Below, piece by piece: positions 5,280 to 60,086 of a stretch of 64,000 bases of DNA. The notes under the pieces were generated by a model, which was given only the letters and a program-made list of their open reading frames with translations, searched no databases and was not told where the DNA came from. The translations under genes and the position numbers were made by a program. Location of the stretch: sequence record MK327931.1. The stretch is one strand, 5' to 3'. Origin of the DNA: Escherichia phage vB_EcoM_G17. Numbering within the stretch: position 1 is the stretch's first letter; every line of letters starts with the position of its first letter.

Positions 5280-6260
5280 TTATTTGTCTCCTAAAAATTT
5301 CTTGTATTTTTCTTGGAGACTTTCAAAAATATCTTCTACTTCTTCATCAGAATCATCTTCCAAGTCAATGTTACCTTCAGGTGAATCATCTTCTTCACTT
5401 TCATTAACATTTAGTGGGTTATCTCCTAATGCAGTGCCTGGGAATTTTGGTTCAAATTTATGAACACGATTTTCGTTCCCTTCATTATCATAATACTCAG
5501 GTTCTGGACGATTGTCAAGATCTTCATCTACAACACGTCTCCAATAAAATTGATTGCCTTTTGCAATTACAACAAAATGGTCACCTTCAACACCATTAGT
5601 CTTTAGTTGACCATCACGAACGGCATCAGCTTCTGTATCATATGGACCATAATCAGTACTGTTAGATGGTTCTTCATCTTCAGAGATACTTAGATCTGGT
5701 AGAAATTGGGTATCTTTCATTTCTTTATCGGTAGCAGGATTACCCTCTACTGAAAAATCTTCGTCTTCTTCTTCGTTAATACCAGCAAGAGATAGCATAC
5801 GACTAAAATCGAATTCTTCTTCAATAATTTCTTCTTCTTCCTCATCGTCTTCTTCAACTGATTCTAGTTGAGGTTGACCACTAAGGTCAAGAGAAAAATC
5901 TTCTTCACCTTCTACACCTGGTTCTGAAAATTCAGCATCCATACTAACTTCATCTGTGTCAGCACCAAAATCACCAACATCAGCGGAAAGATCATCAACT
6001 GCCGCTGCTAGTGGGTCTTCAACTGAAGTTTCAATTCCACCAATTTCTTCTTCAGCACCAATAGAATCGAGATCTAGTGGAGCAATAGGTGGAAGAGATG
6101 GAGTCATAGACCCCATAGATGGTACTGGAGCGGCAACTACTGGGTCTTGACGTTCAGCTTGACCAGCAAGAGCTAACATACGTGATAGAGTTTCCAAATC
6201 ATCAGATTCTAAACCTGCGATATCGATTTTAACTTGTGCTTCATTAATTTTTTTAGCCAT
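5280..6260 (-). CDS. highly acidic protein (326 aa), D/E-rich low complexity
   Basis: Long ORF; runs such as EEDDEEEEEIIEEE. Confidence 0.6.
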   Translation of the reverse strand: MAKKINEAQVKIDIAGLESDDLETLSRMLALAGQAERQDPVVAAPVPSMGSMTPSLPPIAPLDLDSIGAEEEIGGIETSVEDPLAAAVDDLSADVGDFGADTDEVSMDAEFSEPGVEGEEDFSLDLSGQPQLESVEEDDEEEEEIIEEEFDFSRMLSLAGINEEEDEDFSVEGNPATDKEMKDTQFLPDLSISEDEEPSNSTDYGPYDTEADAVRDGQLKTNGVEGDHFVVIAKGNQFYWRRVVDEDLDNRPEPEYYDNEGNENRVHKFEPKFPGTALGDNPLNVNESEEDDSPEGNIDLEDDSDEEVEDIFESLQEKYKKFLGDK

Positions 6261-18515: not shown

Positions 18516-18992
18516 TTATTTTAGAATGTATAAGTGTTTTTCTGCATTGACCAGACGGTGATCAATGATTTCTTTGATAACGTTCCAGTTACCGCCGCCC
18601 AAATCGGCTCCAATTTTCGGGAAATGTACATGAACATCTCGATCAACTTTACAAAAATAATTTAGATGTTTGAACACATCGTCAATTGCATCATAACTGA
18701 CATATTTAGCACCGTCATTACCGTACATTTTTTGGGTAATACAGTTTGCAATAATCAAATTATCGTTAATTGCTGAATATGCAATTTGTCCAATTCTAAG
18801 AAATCCCATTTCCTTTTCATATGCTTTATAATCATCATATGCCATTGGGTAGCGATTCCTTAGTTCCTTTGCGAAACCAGAACCCATCTTACCTTGAGCA
18901 TTACATCCGTGAGCAATAATATGTAATGCATTTTGATCATCGGTAACAGTACTGAATAATTCAAACAGATTACCTCGGTGTTCATGAATCAT
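18516..18992 (-). CDS. macro domain protein (ADP-ribose binding or processing)
   Basis: ALHIIAHGCNAQGKMGSGFAKEL and GADLGGG resemble macro-domain phosphate-binding loops. Confidence 0.7.
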   Translation of the reverse strand: MIHEHRGNLFELFSTVTDDQNALHIIAHGCNAQGKMGSGFAKELRNRYPMAYDDYKAYEKEMGFLRIGQIAYSAINDNLIIANCITQKMYGNDGAKYVSYDAIDDVFKHLNYFCKVDRDVHVHFPKIGADLGGGNWNVIKEIIDHRLVNAEKHLYILK

Positions 18993-19822: not shown

Positions 19823-20224
19823 TTATTTCCTTCTATTTCTTTGAAAAGCTTTAACAGCTTTAATAATACTGTTACACATTCGTTCAGTCAAATACTTTTG
19901 ACATTCTCGTACATCAATGTACATGAACTTATCCAATTCTGGATGACTCTTACCATATCTATTAGTGTAAGTACTTTTACAAACTAATTCATCTGGTATT
20001 GGTTTGTCTTTGGCAGTATAAAAGAAAAGTACTAACCTTTTTCCCTTTCTATAGGATACATCACCAAGAAACAGAAGATCATCTTCATCGATTTCGTATC
20101 CTGTCTCTTCGAAACATTCACGTACAGCAGCTTCTTTGAAAGTTTCATTACCCTCAGCTTTCCCTTTAGGTAAATCCCAATGATTCTGTCCGTGTTGTAT
20201 GTCCGATAAGTATCTGACCATCAC
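19823..20224 (-). CDS. Nudix hydrolase
   Basis: Nudix box GKAEGNETFKEAAVRECFEETG; GTG/ATG start; short N-terminus. Confidence 0.75.
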   Translation of the reverse strand: MMVRYLSDIQHGQNHWDLPKGKAEGNETFKEAAVRECFEETGYEIDEDDLLFLGDVSYRKGKRLVLFFYTAKDKPIPDELVCKSTYTNRYGKSHPELDKFMYIDVRECQKYLTERMCNSIIKAVKAFQRNRRK

Positions 20225-23393: not shown

Positions 23394-24320
23394 TTAGAGT
23401 GAACTTAACAACAAATCTGCTCGGTTTGTAACTTGACGATACCATAAGGAATTCATAATTTCTTTTTTAAATTTCTTAGGGTTATCATTTTTCACACTTT
23501 TCCAAAGTTTATTAAACGTTGCTAATTTATCAACACCCATTGTATAGGACATTTCATAAAGAATACGTTGTTGTTCTTTGGTCAGATTTACTGCTTCTTT
23601 TTTCTGCATCAATAATAAAAAGTCATTATATGTTCTTTTCATATCTTGCATTAAAAGTTTATTGGCTTGAGCTTTGGTAATACCGTTTCTGTACTTAATC
23701 GCATCAGATTCTTTTCTACCCAAATAATGCCCATAACCTATTGTATAATTACCTTTCATGTCCTTGTAGGGATGAAATTTAGAATTGTGGAAAGGAACTC
23801 CGACTTTCCCACCAAGTAAACGGCGTTTGTTCTTGGACTGAAATTCAATTGAACCTTCAGCTTCTTTGATGTGATTGACAATTTCTGGATCATTATAATC
23901 AAACAGTACAGTCACATCTGGTAACAATACGTTCTTCAAATCCTCTTTTGTTGGGATAAAGATACCCTGAGAAGTATGAAGAGTAGCATTTAAATTGATA
24001 TTTTTCAACAAAATAACATACTCTTCAAGTTGTACATTTTTAGGTTTAAACTTTTTAGCAATAGAATAATAACTATCACCAGGTTGAACCGTATAATGCT
24101 TCTCGCCGCGTGGAACATCCTTTGATATTTCTACCTTTGGTAATTCCTGCTTTTGAATTTGCGTAACTTGTGGTTTTAAATTGTGTACCTGACTTTCGTC
24201 CGATGATGATACACGATCATTTTGAGAAAAACCATAAAATCCAATCGCAGCGACAAGTACTGTGCAAACTAGAACACCATAAGTAGTCTTAGTTTTCAGT
24301 GCTTTTTTCGCTTGTTTCAA
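23394..24320 (-). CDS. LysM plus T4-lysozyme-like (GH24-like) domain protein with N-terminal membrane anchor; putative endolysin
   Basis: TM segment VLVCTVLVAAIGFYGF; LysM YTVQPGDSYYSIAKKF; GNYTIGYGHYLG..SLWYRQVTNRA resembles T4 lysozyme; likely TTG start at 24320 after AAGGAGG (ORF extends to 24353). Confidence 0.7.
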   Translation of the reverse strand: MKQAKKALKTKTTYGVLVCTVLVAAIGFYGFSQNDRVSSSDESQVHNLKPQVTQIQKQELPKVEISKDVPRGEKHYTVQPGDSYYSIAKKFKPKNVQLEEYVILLKNINLNATLHTSQGIFIPTKEDLKNVLLPDVTVLFDYNDPEIVNHIKEAEGSIEFQSKNKRRLLGGKVGVPFHNSKFHPYKDMKGNYTIGYGHYLGRKESDAIKYRNGITKAQANKLLMQDMKRTYNDFLLLMQKKEAVNLTKEQQRILYEMSYTMGVDKLATFNKLWKSVKNDNPKKFKKEIMNSLWYRQVTNRADLLLSSL

Positions 24321-37570: not shown

Positions 37571-38803
37571 TTACTTATACCATTGCATTTCTCTGATATC
37601 AATGATAATTTTTGATGCTAATTTAATGTTTGGTTTTTTGGGAAGTACTGATTTCTTATATAGAACATCACGAATGTATTGTACTTTATCATCGAAATAT
37701 TCTAATACTTCTTCATACTTCCACTTACCATTACGAATATCCATCAACATTTGTGCATCAGGTCGTTTAACTTGAATAATTCCACTCTGTAAAGCTTCTT
37801 CTGCACTATTCAAAAGTCTAATTGTGTGCATAGCATGTTTACAATCGTATCCGTGTTGTGATTCTAAAACAGCACGTTTGGCATTACGATTTTCTTTCCA
37901 TTTATGATAACTTTTCCTATTCTCACTATTCTCCTGATATTCTTTTTCGTTAAATTTTACAATTAGTTCTGGTTTGGTTTTCAACTCTTCAGTACTACGT
38001 TCTTTTGAAAAATAACGCAATGAACCATCATGGTTAATAGTGCTTTCATTAGGATTCTTAACAATCGCAAAAATGTTTTCTCCGTAATGAATTAGTTCAT
38101 AACCATTATTAAAATTCAATAAATTGAAATCACGATCAAGAATTTTTTCAGTAGTGTAGTTATGCACTAATCTTACGAAATGATATTGCTTTAATGGATT
38201 TTTCGAAACTAACTGCAATGATGTATCACGCATATATTTTTCAAAATCAATCTTTTTAGCATTAAATGGATGTAAGTTGGATGTATCTAAACGTTCAACA
38301 AGATACTGTGGGAATGAATCATACATCCACGCAAGAACCTCATCGACAGGGTGTTCTTCTAAAATCTCATTTAATCGTTTTTCAGCAATACGCTCTTTAT
38401 CCATCCAACCGTGATGATTTGTCATACGCTTAATCTGATTATATGCATATCCAGTGTATGAAAATGCAATCTTGGAACTAAGAAGTTTTTGGTTAAATGA
38501 ACGAAGATAGTCATAAATTTCAGTACTTTCCACAATGTGTTCAGGTTCAACCCAAAGTGATTCAAGAATATTAGGGTTAGCTTCAGTGTATAATTTTAAA
38601 TACTGATTCAACTCATAGAATTTAGTATCTTCTTCGCTTTTGTCAGCTACCTCTTTGACCTTATAGAAGGGTGTAAGAATAAATTCTTTATTAGCAAGAA
38701 AAATACCACGATAATCAGTATCACTTTCCGGTGTACTGGTTCCGTAGGCTTGTGACCCAGCCAAGTGTTTCACTATTGTTTGTTCAATATATTGGTTATT
38801 CAT
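37571..38803 (-). CDS. Pol-beta-superfamily nucleotidyltransferase (predicted NTase of RNA-repair-associated type)
   Basis: N-terminal hGSxAYGxxxxxSDxDxRGIF signature: LAGSQAYGTSTPESDTDYRGIF. Confidence 0.65.
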   Translation of the reverse strand: MNNQYIEQTIVKHLAGSQAYGTSTPESDTDYRGIFLANKEFILTPFYKVKEVADKSEEDTKFYELNQYLKLYTEANPNILESLWVEPEHIVESTEIYDYLRSFNQKLLSSKIAFSYTGYAYNQIKRMTNHHGWMDKERIAEKRLNEILEEHPVDEVLAWMYDSFPQYLVERLDTSNLHPFNAKKIDFEKYMRDTSLQLVSKNPLKQYHFVRLVHNYTTEKILDRDFNLLNFNNGYELIHYGENIFAIVKNPNESTINHDGSLRYFSKERSTEELKTKPELIVKFNEKEYQENSENRKSYHKWKENRNAKRAVLESQHGYDCKHAMHTIRLLNSAEEALQSGIIQVKRPDAQMLMDIRNGKWKYEEVLEYFDDKVQYIRDVLYKKSVLPKKPNIKLASKIIIDIREMQWYK

Positions 38804-51025: not shown

Positions 51026-51250
51026 CTACTTATTATTTGGGTTTGGTATACAGTACACATATACTAGATTACTAAAGTGTTCAGTACTGGAATATTTTGC
51101 TAACTCAGTAATGTGAAAGTTCTTGTCATAAAACCTTCCACTATTGAATGTTGTTATTTGGCAACAATGTATAGGTCTGAAAATATAATAATAAAATATA
51201 TCATTTTCAACTACAACAGTATGGTTTGTATAACGCTCGATTTTCTTCAT
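51026..51250 (-). CDS. hypothetical protein (74 aa)
   Basis: ORF; 4-nt overlap with upstream deaminase-like gene. Confidence 0.4.
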   Translation of the reverse strand: MKKIERYTNHTVVVENDIFYYYIFRPIHCCQITTFNSGRFYDKNFHITELAKYSSTEHFSNLVYVYCIPNPNNK

Positions 51251-51615
51251 GTGTGGATAATTTCCTTAACCCCGTATTCCATAATTGCTAATGTGCAAAT
51301 TTCACATGGTTTGGCAGGTACAGGAATTCCATCTTTACTTATCCGTGCAATCAGTAAAGTATGAACATCAGCACGAGCAGCCAGTAAACATGAAATTTCA
51401 GCATGAAGAAACTCACCTTGCGGTCGCCCAGCACGAATGGCGAAACCCTTCTGTACTGGGTGAGTCTGTGTATAAGAATTTGTGCGAGTTGCCAGTACTC
51501 GACCTTTTTTATCCAGTGCACGAGCAATCACACGATACCGCTTGTAGTTCCCTACTTGCTCAATAGGTGGCATCCGGCGTAATTCTTCAACAAGTTTCTC
51601 CAATTTACTATTCAT
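51247..51615 (-). CDS. CDA-fold zinc-dependent deaminase-like protein (HAE...PCxxC), substrate unknown
   Basis: LHAEISCL and PCEICTLAI about 30 aa apart; Arg-rich; GC-richer codons than neighbours. Confidence 0.6.
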   Translation of the reverse strand: MNSKLEKLVEELRRMPPIEQVGNYKRYRVIARALDKKGRVLATRTNSYTQTHPVQKGFAIRAGRPQGEFLHAEISCLLAARADVHTLLIARISKDGIPVPAKPCEICTLAIMEYGVKEIIHT

Positions 51616-52238
51616 AAGTCTAAGTCTATACCCTTTTCAAGTGATTTTTCTAGAACCCAAAGTTTACATTCTTCACTCTCCAAATGTATCTTTGCCTCTT
51701 GCTGTTCTCCTATTGTACAAGACTTTATGAATGCACGCAAGGCTTGGATTGTATTTTTTAAATTTTTTATGTCATCGATGATTTTTTCTTTGGTTTCTTC
51801 ATCGATTACACATGAACTCCAACTGTGTCGTTCCTCCCAAACTGTTTTAGCGGGATTATATATTGATTGTGATGCATTGAATGAATGTATTTTATGAAAT
51901 TTATCATCTGCTTCCTGTTGGGTATAATCCCCATATGTGTTCAGAACATTTTTGTATAATTCATCAATGGCCTCTTCATACGTATCACCACCACAATCCA
52001 ATTGATAATCATGTGCTTGTACCCATTCGTCGTCTTGCTCAATATACATTGGTGAAAGAAATTCTACCCAAAATTGAGTCTTTGTATTCAATGCTTTGAA
52101 ATCTTCAATTCGATTTGTCATTGGACACACATCATGAGGTTCAATATCAATCCTAGCTGGAACCATATCTTTGTTTATGAATTTAGGATGACCCAAAATC
52201 CACCAGTACTTTTCCGATGTAGTCATAGTAATCTCCAA
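51612..52238 (-). CDS. hypothetical protein (208 aa)
   Basis: ORF. Confidence 0.5.
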   Translation of the reverse strand: MEITMTTSEKYWWILGHPKFINKDMVPARIDIEPHDVCPMTNRIEDFKALNTKTQFWVEFLSPMYIEQDDEWVQAHDYQLDCGGDTYEEAIDELYKNVLNTYGDYTQQEADDKFHKIHSFNASQSIYNPAKTVWEERHSWSSCVIDEETKEKIIDDIKNLKNTIQALRAFIKSCTIGEQQEAKIHLESEECKLWVLEKSLEKGIDLDL

Positions 52239-52272
52239 TTAAAAAGTACTGCACACGATGGCAGTACTGATG

Positions 52273-52632
52273 TTAAACGTAACGTTTCTTTTTATAATCA
52301 TACCCTACTGCTTTGTAAAAGTCAAACAAAGAAGCATGTTCAAATGTAGGTAATAGATCATATGGGTGCTGATAGTTCGCAATACCAACAATAGCCATCA
52401 TTGATTCAGCAGTTCTTACGTTATCACTATCCCATTCATCTAAACGCCAAAGTGAGCAAAGTACCTCTCGTTCATGTTGCTTACCCAGAAAGAATCCAGC
52501 TTCACGGTCACGAAATGCACCTACACTGACAGTACTTTTGTACCAGTCTTTTTCACCATATAATGGCATACGGATAATATGTTTTTCTTTAGCTTCTCCA
52601 AAGCGATGAAGAAATGCTACATAATCACTCAT
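52273..52632 (-). CDS. hypothetical protein (119 aa)
   Basis: ORF. Confidence 0.5.
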   Translation of the reverse strand: MSDYVAFLHRFGEAKEKHIIRMPLYGEKDWYKSTVSVGAFRDREAGFFLGKQHEREVLCSLWRLDEWDSDNVRTAESMMAIVGIANYQHPYDLLPTFEHASLFDFYKAVGYDYKKKRYV

Positions 52633-52799
52633 AATTTATAACCCATTACAGGTTTGGTATGATCCGGTTCGTAAGACTTTTCAGTACTGAACCCTCTGAA
52701 ATTTCCACGTCCTGGATTTGGACAAGCCATCCCTTGTATTGAATGCTTACCCTTATCTTTGCCACAATTTTTACATTTGTAGCCAATTACTTCTTTCAT
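52629..52799 (-). CDS. candidate small Cys-containing (zinc-ribbon-like) protein, 56 aa, not in ORF track
   Basis: ATGA start/stop overlaps with both neighbours; MKEVIGYKCKNCGKDKGKHSIQGMACPNPGRG... Confidence 0.4.
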   Translation of the reverse strand: MKEVIGYKCKNCGKDKGKHSIQGMACPNPGRGNFRGFSTEKSYEPDHTKPVMGYKL

Positions 52800-53044
52800 T
52801 GTGCATCCTTCGGAACAGTATTAAGACGTTTGCGATTCACAATCTTCCTGCACATGAGGTTAAGATCTTGCCCATGACGCATAGTATGACATGCGTATAG
52901 TGTTCCTTGATGATTTAGTTTTGTTAAACCTTGACGGATGATTTCAGCATCCATCTCATCAACTTTAGGAGCACAACCACAGAGAATAATGGATACAAAT
53001 ATTGTTAATGTAATGAATATATTTTTCATGATATTTTTTCTCAT
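52796..53044 (-). CDS. putative lipoprotein (82 aa)
   Basis: Signal peptide with lipobox ILCGC. Confidence 0.5.
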   Translation of the reverse strand: MRKNIMKNIFITLTIFVSIILCGCAPKVDEMDAEIIRQGLTKLNHQGTLYACHTMRHGQDLNLMCRKIVNRKRLNTVPKDAQ

Positions 53045-53421
53045 TTAGTAAAACACGAATTATTACTGATAAGTTCATCAAGTACTTTTTGTACTTCGAT
53101 AGAATTAATATCAACTTTGTAATAATTATAGTTTTTAACTCTAAAATGTTCTTTTGATATATCAACTTTAAATTCAATAATATCAAGATTACCAATAAAA
53201 TCAGACTTATCAGTTCTTAAATCCAAAATACCTAATTCCGGTTTTTGTGGTTTACATAAAATCAAACCAAATTTATTTTCTTCAAATGCCTGATTAAACA
53301 TATCATAATAATCACTAATAACAAATCTAATATTATCAGTGCTTAACTTTCCTGATTTTCCTTTTTTATAAACAGAAACAATGTTTAGTTCAAAGGTTTT
53401 ACCAAAGCGTGTGATTTTCAT
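53041..53421 (-). CDS. hypothetical protein (126 aa)
   Basis: ORF. Confidence 0.5.
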   Translation of the reverse strand: MKITRFGKTFELNIVSVYKKGKSGKLSTDNIRFVISDYYDMFNQAFEENKFGLILCKPQKPELGILDLRTDKSDFIGNLDIIEFKVDISKEHFRVKNYNYYKVDINSIEVQKVLDELISNNSCFTK

Positions 53422-54389
53422 TTTGGGCTATAACCACTTTTAATTTTAGAAATTACTTTCTTCTCGAAGAACTTACGTGCTTCTTCAATAGTTTCGAATT
53501 CTTCACCATCTGTAGTACTGGTTTTACCAATAGCACCGTACTCAATAATTACTTCACACACTGGAGCATTCAATTCAATATTATAGAATTTGTTTGAAGA
53601 ACCGTGAACATATTCCAAATGTACATTATCAGGAATGTTCTGTACATAATCATAGTTCTTGAAGATAATATCAATCATATTTTCTTCGCCGCGATCAGGA
53701 AATAGTTCAGTATTATTCAGTACTAAACGCTGTGCAGCACGGAACATATCAAAATATTGTTCGCCTTTTTTCAGTTCTTTTGTATCAGAACAGAAATGAC
53801 CATAGTATTCTACATAATCATTCCAAGGATAAATTCCTTCATCAGCAGTTTCAGACACGTAAGTTTCATCTTGTGGAACTTTAAAACCACGAGTTTTTGG
53901 ATGAGAAATTAAGCACAGTGAAATATTATGACCGATATCTGAATCATCAGTAATACTACCACCAACCATATGAACAACATTTTTAATACTTTCAAAATCT
54001 ACATCTTCAATTTCATGATACATTAAATGTTCTTCAATATTACTTACTAGTAATGAATTACCATTTCCGGCATCGAATTCAAAAATGAAAAGTTCTACAC
54101 AATCTTCTTCTTTCATTTCAATAGTATCACTGAGTTTAATATACTCATTTTTTAATTGTTCAATATTTTCATGAGAACCAAAACTATAACGTGAACTGAT
54201 ATAACTACTACCGTCCAACCATCCCATATCCCAAGGTTCTTCTGACATGTATTCTGAGCTATAGAAATCAGTCAAATCATCTCTCTGAGTACAAACCGTA
54301 AGAGAACGAACATTACTAAGACCTTGAACTTCAAGATTCAGTACTGTAGTATTGCCAATTTTTTGTTCAGAAATAATTTTAGTTTTCAT
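53418..54389 (-). CDS. WGR-domain-containing protein (323 aa)
   Basis: C-terminal KFYNIELNAPVCEVIIEYGAIGKTSTTDGEEFETIEEARKFFEKKVISKIKSGY fits WGR pattern. Confidence 0.5.
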   Translation of the reverse strand: MKTKIISEQKIGNTTVLNLEVQGLSNVRSLTVCTQRDDLTDFYSSEYMSEEPWDMGWLDGSSYISSRYSFGSHENIEQLKNEYIKLSDTIEMKEEDCVELFIFEFDAGNGNSLLVSNIEEHLMYHEIEDVDFESIKNVVHMVGGSITDDSDIGHNISLCLISHPKTRGFKVPQDETYVSETADEGIYPWNDYVEYYGHFCSDTKELKKGEQYFDMFRAAQRLVLNNTELFPDRGEENMIDIIFKNYDYVQNIPDNVHLEYVHGSSNKFYNIELNAPVCEVIIEYGAIGKTSTTDGEEFETIEEARKFFEKKVISKIKSGYSPK

Positions 54390-54602
54390 TTAAAATACCT
54401 ATTGAATTGATTTACGCCATTTGGCTAGTTTAACATTCATGTAAGTAACTCACGTTCCATCTCTTCTGAACTCATATTATCGCATTACAAAGCGAACATG
54501 TCAAGTGCACAAATGCAAAGATCTACAGCTTCACCTTTGACACCATCTTTACCTGCTTCTTTATATGATAACCCATCACGGATGTTCATATTTCATATCA
54601 TC

Positions 54603-55253
54603 CTACTTTTTCGATTGGAACAATGCAATCTGTACGCGTGTAATGAACTCACGCTCTACTTCTTCAGCACTGTGTCCTTCATATTGTGTCTTGAAAAGTT
54701 CCATTGCTTTTAGTGCCATCTGTACAGAAATGTCTGTAATACTTTCAGTACTGGTACTTTCAAATACATTTTTGAGGCTTAGTTCATCATCACTAACATC
54801 ATCAACTTCAACTGGGTTGTTGTTTTGTTCATCAATGTAACGTAAAGCTTTGTACTCTGCTTTTGTTAGATTTTCATACCAACGTGGGTGGTGGAACAAA
54901 TCATGCATTGTAACTTTTGCTGCTTCCATGAGAAGTAATAGCTCTTCATTTCTGCGAATATGTTTTTCTTCACCTTTATGATTTTTGTAAGTATATGCAC
55001 AACGCATAATGGCTAATCGAACTTCACCTGCTTTGGTGATAGTGTATGAATGTATTGCATTATCATAATCACTTTCCCATTTCTGACCAGCATATTCGTA
55101 CCAAAGTTCATTAGTTTCCCATTTAATGAAATCAAATTCTAACAAACTGTCAATCAACTTAGCCAAATTACCACTGTACTCACGGCTAATGATATTGAAA
55201 CCACCATTGTACTTTGCAAGGTACAGAATCTTTTCTTGAGTTACATTTTTCAT
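54603..55253 (-). CDS. hypothetical protein (216 aa)
   Basis: ORF. Confidence 0.5.
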   Translation of the reverse strand: MKNVTQEKILYLAKYNGGFNIISREYSGNLAKLIDSLLEFDFIKWETNELWYEYAGQKWESDYDNAIHSYTITKAGEVRLAIMRCAYTYKNHKGEEKHIRRNEELLLLMEAAKVTMHDLFHHPRWYENLTKAEYKALRYIDEQNNNPVEVDDVSDDELSLKNVFESTSTESITDISVQMALKAMELFKTQYEGHSAEEVEREFITRVQIALFQSKK

Positions 55254-55591
55254 TACATGTAATCCTTGATGTATTTTAGCAGTTTAGATTTCTCTTCGGT
55301 ACTTAATGATTTCTTGTTCATTAAGTGTTTCATTTCTTGACGTTCAATTTCTTCACATCTTTTAGATTCAGCTTCAATTCGTGTATTATATTCTTCGTCA
55401 GTTTCTTCTCTGGTCCAAATTACATTGTATCCATGAAAACCGCCGTAACCACTGTCTGGTGAAAGACTAATGTGACCGTTATATTCAGCACGATACTTAT
55501 TAAGAGTGTCAATAAAGGTATCAATGCCACACGGTTCAATTTCAATATAACCAATCACTACAGTAACGTCAATTTTGTTCATAAAGTTCAC
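55253..55591 (-). CDS. hypothetical protein (112 aa)
   Basis: ORF. Confidence 0.5.
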   Translation of the reverse strand: MNFMNKIDVTVVIGYIEIEPCGIDTFIDTLNKYRAEYNGHISLSPDSGYGGFHGYNVIWTREETDEEYNTRIEAESKRCEEIERQEMKHLMNKKSLSTEEKSKLLKYIKDYM

Positions 55592-55609
55592 CTATAAAAT
55601 TAGGGAGCA

Positions 55610-56167
55610 TTAGCTCCCTTTGTATTGATGTTTACGTTTAGTACTGTATTTCCAGCCAGTACTATGTCTTGTTCTGATATCGTCCCAATACGATGGTAAT
55701 GAACGCATCTTACGTCTTCCACGTATATCAGGTTCCCCCTCATCCTTCAGTACTGCACAAGCCATACGACGCTCTTGTTGTGTCTTAGGACGCTTGTATC
55801 GGGAGTGGTTATGTTTGTACATATACGAACGCTTATGTCGCCATTCCGTATCACGAGCTTTACGTTTATGTTCCCAGTACTCATTATAGAGTATCATGTA
55901 TTCACCCATAAGTAAATCAGGAGATACAAGTAATCCTTTTTCAGTACAAAGATAATAACCCACAAACTTTTCTGGAAACATTTCGTAATAGAAACGGTTC
56001 TTCCAAAATGTTTCACGATTCTTTTTGTTGAATTCAGCTAAATCGAATTTCATCTTACTGTGGAAACGGTCTATACCGTCATGTTCCGCAATGTACTCTA
56101 ACAGATTATCAATAATCTCAACTTTACCAGAATCGTGATACAACGTAAATGTTTGGTCAAAAAACAT
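55610..56167 (-). CDS. hypothetical protein with highly basic C-terminus (185 aa)
   Basis: ORF; R/K-rich tail. Confidence 0.5.
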   Translation of the reverse strand: MFFDQTFTLYHDSGKVEIIDNLLEYIAEHDGIDRFHSKMKFDLAEFNKKNRETFWKNRFYYEMFPEKFVGYYLCTEKGLLVSPDLLMGEYMILYNEYWEHKRKARDTEWRHKRSYMYKHNHSRYKRPKTQQERRMACAVLKDEGEPDIRGRRKMRSLPSYWDDIRTRHSTGWKYSTKRKHQYKGS

Positions 56168-58779: not shown

Positions 58780-59331
58780 CTATAGATAACTAATTAGTAA
58801 GTTTTCTTTTTGAACCAGATACTCCAATTCTTGTTTTGCTGTACCGATGAAGTTCTGTGTCATAAGATTATTATATCCCGCTTCTCGATTTTGTCCCTTA
58901 GAATAACGAGAAATATGACATAAATTTACACCAGCAACTTCTGCACTTGCATGTTTAGCATTAGTGTATCCATCTCTAATGTGTTTCAACTCGTCATAGG
59001 TTACTTCATAGCTAAAACTGTGACTGTTTGCACCTGGGTAAATTTCAAAAGTTTTGAGTGGTCGAAGATGGGAAACAAAAATATTGTAATCCATTTCTTC
59101 TTGAACTTCACGACGCAACGCATCTTCTAGTGAGATATCAGTACTTTCTACGGTTCCACCACATCCACCAAGAAGACCATCCCATCGTAATTGCAGTAAT
59201 ACTAAATTTACTTCTGGTATATCATTCAACTCATAGTTTTTGTAAGGGTTGCATTTTCTTGCAAAGAAATAACAAAATACAAAATTTGCACGTGTGCCAT
59301 ATTCACCAAAGGGAACTTCTTTAACACTCAT
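58780..59331 (-). CDS. Nudix-like hydrolase
   Basis: Nudix-box-like GGCGGTVESTDISLEDALRREVQEEMD. Confidence 0.5.
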   Translation of the reverse strand: MSVKEVPFGEYGTRANFVFCYFFARKCNPYKNYELNDIPEVNLVLLQLRWDGLLGGCGGTVESTDISLEDALRREVQEEMDYNIFVSHLRPLKTFEIYPGANSHSFSYEVTYDELKHIRDGYTNAKHASAEVAGVNLCHISRYSKGQNREAGYNNLMTQNFIGTAKQELEYLVQKENLLISYL

Positions 59332-60086
59332 TTCATACGTTCCTTAATTATAGTCTCTAGATGCGGTATTGCTTTGGTTGCTGGCTTGATAACTTTTTCA
59401 TTAAACAAAAAATCATTATCATTTTTACGAATGTTAACATTAACACTATAACATGGTAATGCTGCTGCTAATCTCGACCATACCAGTACTGTATCGCTAC
59501 TACCAATTACAATAACTGTATCATTTTCATTAAGAGATTTCAACACATTATTTCGTTCTTCGTAAATTGGTAAGCGAATACCATCAACATAACGATGATA
59601 TTCTCCAATCATTACTACATTTGGTTTAGCAAAAACATCATGTTTTGGTATGTATGGTTCGTATCCGCAGTTAATAACATTATAATCATCGGAATTGATA
59701 CTATAATTTTCAATAACTTCGCACAAGTTTCCATGAAGTTTAAGCTCATGACCACCAATACGAGTATAAAGATCGTCCATGTTAGAAGTCATATGAAGGA
59801 AGCAATCACCATATTGATCTTCTAACGATTTTATAAAATAATGCATTGCATTCGGTTCGCATTGTCCCAATTTTACACGTAATGTATTATAGAAAGAATG
59901 AACAACATGATATTTTGTAGTTAAACTAGCAATGTTACATACATCATTAATTTTAAATGTATCCCACAAACCATCATCAAATCGAAAAGGTTCCATACCA
60001 CTTTCAACAGAAAGTCCTGCACCTGATATAATCAGTAATCGCTTTTTACCTTCATTGCTTATAAATTTTTCTGATATCATATTCAA
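59328..60086 (-). CDS. Sir2 (sirtuin) family protein, no obvious zinc ribbon
   Basis: Rossmann motif GAGLSVESGMEPFRFDDGLW, TSNMDDL, catalytic-His region KLHGNL, VIGSSDTV. Confidence 0.7.
   Translation of the reverse strand: MNMISEKFISNEGKKRLLIISGAGLSVESGMEPFRFDDGLWDTFKINDVCNIASLTTKYHVVHSFYNTLRVKLGQCEPNAMHYFIKSLEDQYGDCFLHMTSNMDDLYTRIGGHELKLHGNLCEVIENYSINSDDYNVINCGYEPYIPKHDVFAKPNVVMIGEYHRYVDGIRLPIYEERNNVLKSLNENDTVIVIGSSDTVLVWSRLAAALPCYSVNVNIRKNDNDFLFNEKVIKPATKAIPHLETIIKERMK

Follow-up and report, generated by a model that had tools for sequence, protein, structure and literature searches.

This study analyzed a 64,000-nucleotide stretch of Escherichia phage DNA (the window) and characterized the partner module of a phage WGR domain as a confidently folded orphan that is only ever fused to WGR. 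The module has been lost secondarily in some relatives, and the locus that carries the gene is an indel cassette. These three points are new; the WGR assignment itself is correct, yet it is already public annotation, and WGR in jumbo phages is already in the literature. The domain identity, architecture, and distribution of the protein were established, as were the exclusivity of its fusion, the purifying selection on it, its dispensability, and its modularity; every functional statement about it is one that we infer, whether it concerns binding to nucleic acid, a site for a ligand or metal, or a part in regulation.

The region from 52000 to 56000 of the window was 100% identical to Escherichia phage Sharanji (OR545507.1), an Asteriusvirus jumbo phage of 350 kb, and 98-99% identical to PBECO4, phAPEC6, slurp01, and UB. 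Subtracting 239630 from a position in the Sharanji record gives the window position. The Sharanji counterpart of the WGR gene is gp474 (WNN14755.1), which GenBank labels 'WGR domain protein', and the same label is used in PBECO4, phAPEC6, BF17, UB, slurp01, UE-S1, and fEgEco12; the Sharanji genome paper (PMC11895373) does not discuss the protein. Comparison with orthologs yielded dN/dS values of 0.13-0.23, and both the N-terminal module (N-module) and the WGR domain were under purifying selection. The features of the locus are listed in Table 1.

Table 1. Features of the WGR locus, in window coordinates.
Feature	Position	Strand	Details and basis
WGR-domain protein gene (complete)	53418..54389	-	323 aa, two modules; ORF list
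Orphan N-module	53640..54389	-	aa 1-250; predicted models, pLDDT 90 and 88.9
WGR domain	53424..53624	-	aa 256-322; PF05406 match
Hairpin motif F-D-A-G-N-G ... L-L-V-S-N	54039..54077	-	aa 105-117; alignments
Motif G-G-S-x-x-D-D-x-D	53937..53963	-	aa 143-151; alignments
Indel cassette relative to 121Q	52987..54589	.	1,603 bp; blastn of window against 121Q and 121Q annotation
Decayed MazG-like pyrophosphatase C-terminal segment (gp476 family)	54399..54589	-	tblastn, DNA alignment, PHROG matches
Sigma-70-like promoter match	54476..54504	-	TTGACA-17-GATAAT, extended -10 TG, 11/12; consensus scan, pattern match only

WGR is a widespread small nucleic-acid-binding module known from PARP enzymes. To our knowledge, no function of WGR outside PARPs has ever been demonstrated experimentally, and we found no binding experiment on any prokaryotic or phage WGR protein in the literature. 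The original prediction placed a WGR domain at the C-terminus of the protein, and the HMM search bore this out: PF05406 scored 41.9 bits (cutoff, 22; E=1.1e-10) and aligned over model positions 3-74 of 79. This was the sole Pfam match of the protein, it was present in all homologs, and the modelled fold superposed on experimentally solved WGR domains. The position of the eponymous motif reads Y284-G285-A286 and not Trp-Gly-Arg; across the family alignment the motif is Y/W-G-A/G/P, with the Gly invariant and Arg present in no member. The corresponding motif of PDB 2ra8 is Y-G-K, and a strict WGR motif is therefore unnecessary for WGR membership. The lysines K267, K289, K310, K311, K315, and K317 were invariant or nearly so in the family and were aligned with lysines of the PARP3 WGR domain, and the net charge of the WGR core was -2, whereas the corresponding stretch carries +5 in PARP3 and +4 in 2ra8. 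Residue 323 is the last of the protein and lies three positions past the 'SGY' of the WGR domain, which we take to align with the 'NNW' of PARP2 and PARP3; because the protein stops there, the PARP2 segment bearing Y188, the reader of the 5'-phosphate, is likely absent from the phage protein. The conserved features of break recognition named for PARP2 are W138/G139/R140 and Y188 (PMC7608914).

The approximately 250 residues preceding the WGR domain had been described as unrecognized, and our searches agreed with that description. The N-module had no match in Pfam, PHROGs, or NCBIfam, its profile retrieved nothing from all PDB sequences, a Foldseek search against viral models returned nothing below E=0.03, and no fold match was convincing. 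Structure prediction, which had been proposed as a check on this region, gave confident models (pLDDT 90 and 88.9) of an orphan fold. In these models, residues 1 to ~165 form a seven-stranded alpha/beta part and residues ~175-250 a helical bundle; the strand order is a three-stranded meander (residues 2-34) followed by a ferredoxin-like beta-alpha-beta-beta-alpha-beta unit (residues ~66-144), and the ferredoxin/ACT-like similarity is generic. An exhaustive HMMER profile search of 1.84 billion representatives retrieved only eight proteins, namely four family representatives, three distant relatives of 342-354 aa that also terminate in WGR, and one FN3-repeat giant (P0030), which was rejected as a homolog on account of its short, repetitive, and spurious match. 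A broadened profile added two further members, both with WGR. All genuine matches carry WGR, and the module has therefore never been seen without WGR or with another partner.

Several other assignments for the N-module were rejected. A TIR-like identity was proposed by a PADLOC ThsB match (E=0.021, 12.7 bits), which we regard as noise, and no TIR or flavodoxin-like entries were found among the fold matches listed. A SidE_mART match occurred in 1 of 15 members (E=0.055) and was likewise dismissed as noise. DUF4132 was not matched in the WGR protein, and profile comparison revealed no relationship between the N-module and either neighboring gene. Two ORFan-rich contigs, L007 (9121-10350) and L015 (12112-13341), encode a distant 342-aa subfamily comprising the N-module and WGR, near a 409-aa adenylosuccinate-synthetase-like gene; in contig L009, a weak HD_4-like gene adjoins the N-module and WGR copy.

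Within the N-module, the residues G60, G71, N117, G144, D148, D149, and P164 were invariant down to ~20% identity; N117 of the hairpin motif was unchanged even in the most distant family members, and G144, D148, and D149 across the extended family. The G-G-S-x-x-D-D-x-D motif is a candidate metal- or ligand-binding site. A ferredoxin-fold topology would bring together, along one edge of the sheet, N117 at the end of beta3, G144 followed by D148-D149 at the end of beta4, and G60 where beta1 begins; topology reasoning of this kind suggests that they form one conserved polar site. A distinctly unlikely explanation of the protein places catalysis there: it would be a nucleic-acid end-processing or repair enzyme whose WGR domain brings it to nicks or termini of DNA or RNA, in the manner of WGR-ligase fusions, and whose N-module is a novel metal-dependent catalytic domain using Asp148, Asp149, and Asn117. 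The persistence to ~20% identity of an Asp-Asp pair after a beta-strand and of the Asn is consistent with such an enzyme, as are the fusion of WGR to break-acting catalytic domains in PARPs and bacterial ligases and the presence in the window of an RlaP-like nucleotidyltransferase, a CCA enzyme, PhoH, NrdD, and a dCMP deaminase.

To determine the distribution of the gene, we searched phage records by tblastn. The WGR protein was found in 17 records, comprising 16 Escherichia Asteriusviruses and Erwinia phage Hallingskeid (39.6% identity), and the flanking gene gp478 occurred in 69 records across the RaK2-like group, 31 Escherichia phages among them. Phage 121Q has no WGR gene; its homology to the window ends at 54590 and returns at 52986, and 216 bp with a 59-aa ORF lie between. 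The cassette thus delimited contains the MazG-like remnant, the WGR gene, gp473, and the 5' end of gp472, and this 1.6-kb segment is polymorphic, being present in some and absent from other E. coli Asteriusviruses that are near-identical. Because the gene occurs in 17 records compared with 69 for its flanking gene, and because the 121Q indel is clean, the WGR gene is accessory and dispensable. Mass spectrometry had detected 62 virion proteins of phAPEC6, and the ortholog (gp336c, QDF13960.1) was not one of them; we therefore rejected the possibility of an injected virion protein that binds DNA ends.

Metagenomic homologs with 38-55% identity shared the same PhoH...NrdD synteny. In two contigs from related jumbo phages, the same syntenic slot was occupied by a WGR gene alone (L013, 5001-5240, 79 aa; L014, 2124-2348, 74 aa) whose product shared 62-73% identity with the WGR domain encoded in the window. 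Searching these contigs by tblastn with full-length family members revealed no N-module remnant, and only residues ~240-323 were matched. The solo gene of L014 has the same upstream ribosome-binding and start context as the gene in the window, and the solo forms retain linker residues from the last helix of the N-module. The retained residues point to secondary loss of the N-module, and the solo genes appear to have been derived by its in-frame loss. Three natural states of the locus thus exist: the N-module with WGR, WGR alone, and no gene.

We further investigated the genes adjoining the WGR gene. Its only recurrent neighbor was the upstream gene, which has a MazG-like C-terminus (phrog_15672/phrog_1247). 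In the window, gp476 lies at 54603-55253 (minus strand), and the MazG-like remnant, which includes the annotated 34-aa 'gp475', contains a premature stop codon and has lost 4 nt in comparison with intact homologs of 282-289 aa; the intact homologs in contigs L004 (4580-5428) and L003 (4935-5804) match phrog_1247 (MazG-like). The DNA of the remnant is highly conserved despite the decay. This gene was rejected as a conserved operon partner because it is syntenic but decayed in the window. On the other side, gp473 (53041-53421) overlaps the stop codon of the WGR gene; UE-S1, EC.P1, and the distant relatives do not have it beside their orthologs, and it was for that reason also rejected as a conserved operon partner and represents a further independent indel. 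Of the sigma-70-like matches in the region, the best is located inside the MazG-like remnant, 87 nt upstream of where WGR translation would start. The region contained 26 such matches, which is not above the shuffled expectation of 20.2 +/- 5.1, and the same DNA encodes ...ALDMF... in relatives.

The protein as a whole has a net charge of -31 (-0.096 per residue). The N-module of the window protein is acidic (net charge -28, pI 4.4), and every family member has an N-module with a net charge of -24 to -34 and a pI of 4.1-4.5. This family-wide acidity, together with a non-basic WGR core, would suit an anti-defense or host-takeover protein acting through protein-protein interaction, in part as a nucleic-acid mimic or decoy, in which the acidic N-module, possibly with the near-neutral WGR domain, binds and neutralizes a basic protein of the host, for example a nuclease, a nucleoid protein, or a defense component that contains WGR. 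We consider this explanation unlikely. The variable presence of the gene among near-identical phages and its position on an indel cassette, amid small genes without assigned functions, fit such a protein; the loss of the WGR Arg and the seeming lack of the PARP2-type 5'-phosphate-reading tail fit as well, and a WGR component does exist in a defense library (PADLOC WGR_XIII; weak match, E=0.022). However, the acidity is unexceptional for the phage: the protein ranked 11th of the 78 window ORFs, a deviation of approximately 1 SD, and a pI below 4.6 is shared by 22% of these ORFs. Comparison with the phage's own proteome thus weakened the argument from charge for a DNA mimic. In addition, no PADLOC, PHROG, or anti-defense family, Ocr/ArdA-type anti-restriction proteins included, was matched significantly, and in the solo WGR forms there is no acidic module at all.

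The window encodes one protein far more acidic than any other. This 326-aa ORF at 5280-6260 (minus strand; Sharanji gp398, hypothetical) has a net charge of -75, 29% Asp+Glu, and a pI of 4.05, and it is a better candidate for a DNA mimic or a condensation protein than the WGR protein.

The original prediction also held that the WGR gene extends an ADP-ribose-related theme formed by macro, Sir2, and Nudix genes; this part was not supported. The Sir2 gene (59328-60080, 73 bits) and the Nudix gene (19823-20221, 48 bits) are genuine, lying ~5 kb and 33 kb from the WGR gene, respectively. The gene annotated 'Macro domain protein' (18516-18992, minus strand) scored only 16.4 bits against a Pfam cutoff of 22 and lies 34 kb away, and dozens of genes separate the WGR gene from the three. 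Phage 121Q keeps the Sir2 gene but lacks the WGR gene, and the two are therefore not co-inherited. Within the protein itself, no ADP-ribosyltransferase catalytic domain was found, and a helical regulatory (HD) domain following WGR is absent, the C-terminus being reached three residues after the 'SGY'; the helical bundle at residues 175-250 precedes WGR and has no PARP match. The N-module showed no profile or fold similarity to ART, HD, macro, Sir2, or Nudix. In PARPs, WGR detects DNA damage and does not handle ADP-ribose (PMC10450202). The theme is thus unsupported because WGR is linked to ADP-ribose solely through neighboring PARP catalytic domains, and because the Sir2, Nudix, and sub-threshold macro genes are far off.

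An ADP-ribose or NAD network could nevertheless be imagined in which the protein serves as a split-PARP-like break sensor working with a separate ADP-ribosyltransferase, Sir2, or macro protein, or in which the N-module binds NAD or ADP-ribose. WGR is best known beside PARP catalytic domains, Sir2, Nudix, and an annotated macro protein are encoded in the same 64-kb window, and some jumbo-phage genes were labelled 'PARP1' in a survey (PMC11662467). We consider such a network highly improbable: the profile and fold comparisons described above, in which the SidE_mART match was noise, the 5-35 kb distances with a sub-threshold macro gene, and the Sir2-positive 121Q all argue against it, and the conserved neighbor of the WGR gene is the MazG-like gene, not an NAD enzyme. 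These findings indicate that a WGR match alone is no sign of ADP-ribose biology and that a 'PARP-like' label should not be propagated in phage genomes. The survey of gut jumbo phages reported its 'PARP1' genes as DNA-damage sensors (PMC11662467); if these calls rest on WGR-only matches, they would be over-annotations.

We compared the phage protein with known WGR systems. PARP1-3 detect DNA damage through WGR (PMC10450202, PMC7608914); relative to them, the phage protein lacks the helical regulatory domain, the ADP-ribosyltransferase domain, and the motif Arg, its WGR core is non-basic, and the extension that carries Y188 in PARP2 is seemingly missing. WGR is also fused to bacterial ATP-dependent DNA ligases in an NT-OB-WGR arrangement (PMC7470946); in these ligases, as in the phage protein, WGR is coupled to another module whose presumed target is nucleic acid. 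It further occurs in MolR-like proteins and DNA-damage regulons (PMC8533742). In the bacterial proteins (Bacteroides fragilis Q64V53, PDB 2ra8, WGR with LRR; MolR-like WGR with DUF4132), WGR is N-terminal and is followed by LRR or DUF4132/HEAT-type modules, whereas in the phage protein an acidic orphan alpha/beta and helical module precedes WGR. In contrast to the bacterial stand-alone and fusion WGR proteins, the phage family has fully lost the basic residue of the motif. A further parallel comes from Iyer, Anantharaman, Krishnan, Burroughs, and Aravind (2021), who counted WGR among the DNA-binding domains of proposed transcription factors in jumbo phages (PMC7824862; QAY00573.1, which differs from the phAPEC6 ortholog); there, too, WGR is the sole recognizable domain of a jumbo-phage protein. 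The DNA-binding regulator role is a computational proposal and is compatible with the explanation that we favor, whereas the acidity and dispensability of the present family are atypical of a core transcription factor.

On the basis of these comparisons, we tentatively favor a dispensable accessory factor whose WGR core docks onto nucleic acid and whose N-module is an optional regulatory or ligand-sensing addition, with no role in ADP-ribosylation. The protein would be an accessory protein of Asteriusvirus/RaK2-like jumbo phages with the C-terminal WGR domain as its functional core. By analogy with every characterized WGR context, this domain would dock the protein onto DNA or RNA, at a particular structure, an end, or a nick, through the conserved lysine-rich sheet and helix, and it would not read the 5'-phosphate in the manner of PARP2. 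The acidic, lineage-specific N-module, with its ferredoxin/ACT-like sheet and helical bundle, would be the added part, and the cluster of invariant Asn117 and Asp148-Asp149 could bind a metal or a small ligand. Relatives keep WGR alone, and the N-module would therefore be optional. Its likely role would be to modulate nucleic-acid transactions of the phage or the host, whether by regulating in the manner of a transcription factor or by interacting with the host.

The docking of WGR onto nucleic acid is supported by the nucleic-acid-linked contexts of WGR elsewhere, by the invariant lysines, and by WGR being the retained core. Against it stand the lost motif Arg, the seeming absence of the Y188 segment, the slightly acidic WGR core, and an overall net charge that is atypical of a DNA-binding protein. 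The solo WGR genes, moreover, may be recent deletions en route to loss and not proof of autonomous function. The probability left over by the favored explanation and its three rivals belongs to something else.

A bolder version, which we regard as very unlikely, supposes that the N-module is a sensing or catalytic domain of a new kind, which arose only in combination with WGR, and that the pair forms an undescribed phage-encoded sensor of nucleic-acid structure. Host immune nucleic acid (for example, retron msDNA) or damaged phage DNA would then be recognized, and recognition would be coupled to a novel activity dependent on the Asp-Asp and Asn residues. If this is true, a WGR protein other than a PARP would for the first time have a function open to experiment. 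The three natural variants in otherwise near-identical cultivable coliphages (Sharanji and phAPEC6 compared with 121Q) constitute a convenient natural experiment on the binding target of a prokaryotic-type WGR domain and on its contribution to infection.

The analysis also touched other genes of the window. The Sharanji 'hypothetical' gene at 51247-51615 (minus strand) encodes a dCMP/cytidine deaminase (PF00383, 29.4 bits), which the 121Q annotation calls a dCMP deaminase, and that at 23394-24320 (minus strand) encodes a protein with LysM and phage lysozyme domains (PF00959, 45 bits). The gene gp452 (37571-38803, minus strand), annotated 'putative nucleotidyltransferase', matched Pfam RlaP with 59.6 bits; RlaP denotes the RNA repair pathway DNA polymerase beta family. 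The window also encodes a CCA-adding enzyme and a tRNA deaminase, and the presence of these two genes and the RlaP-like gp452 in one window suggests an RNA-repair or tRNA-maintenance gene set.
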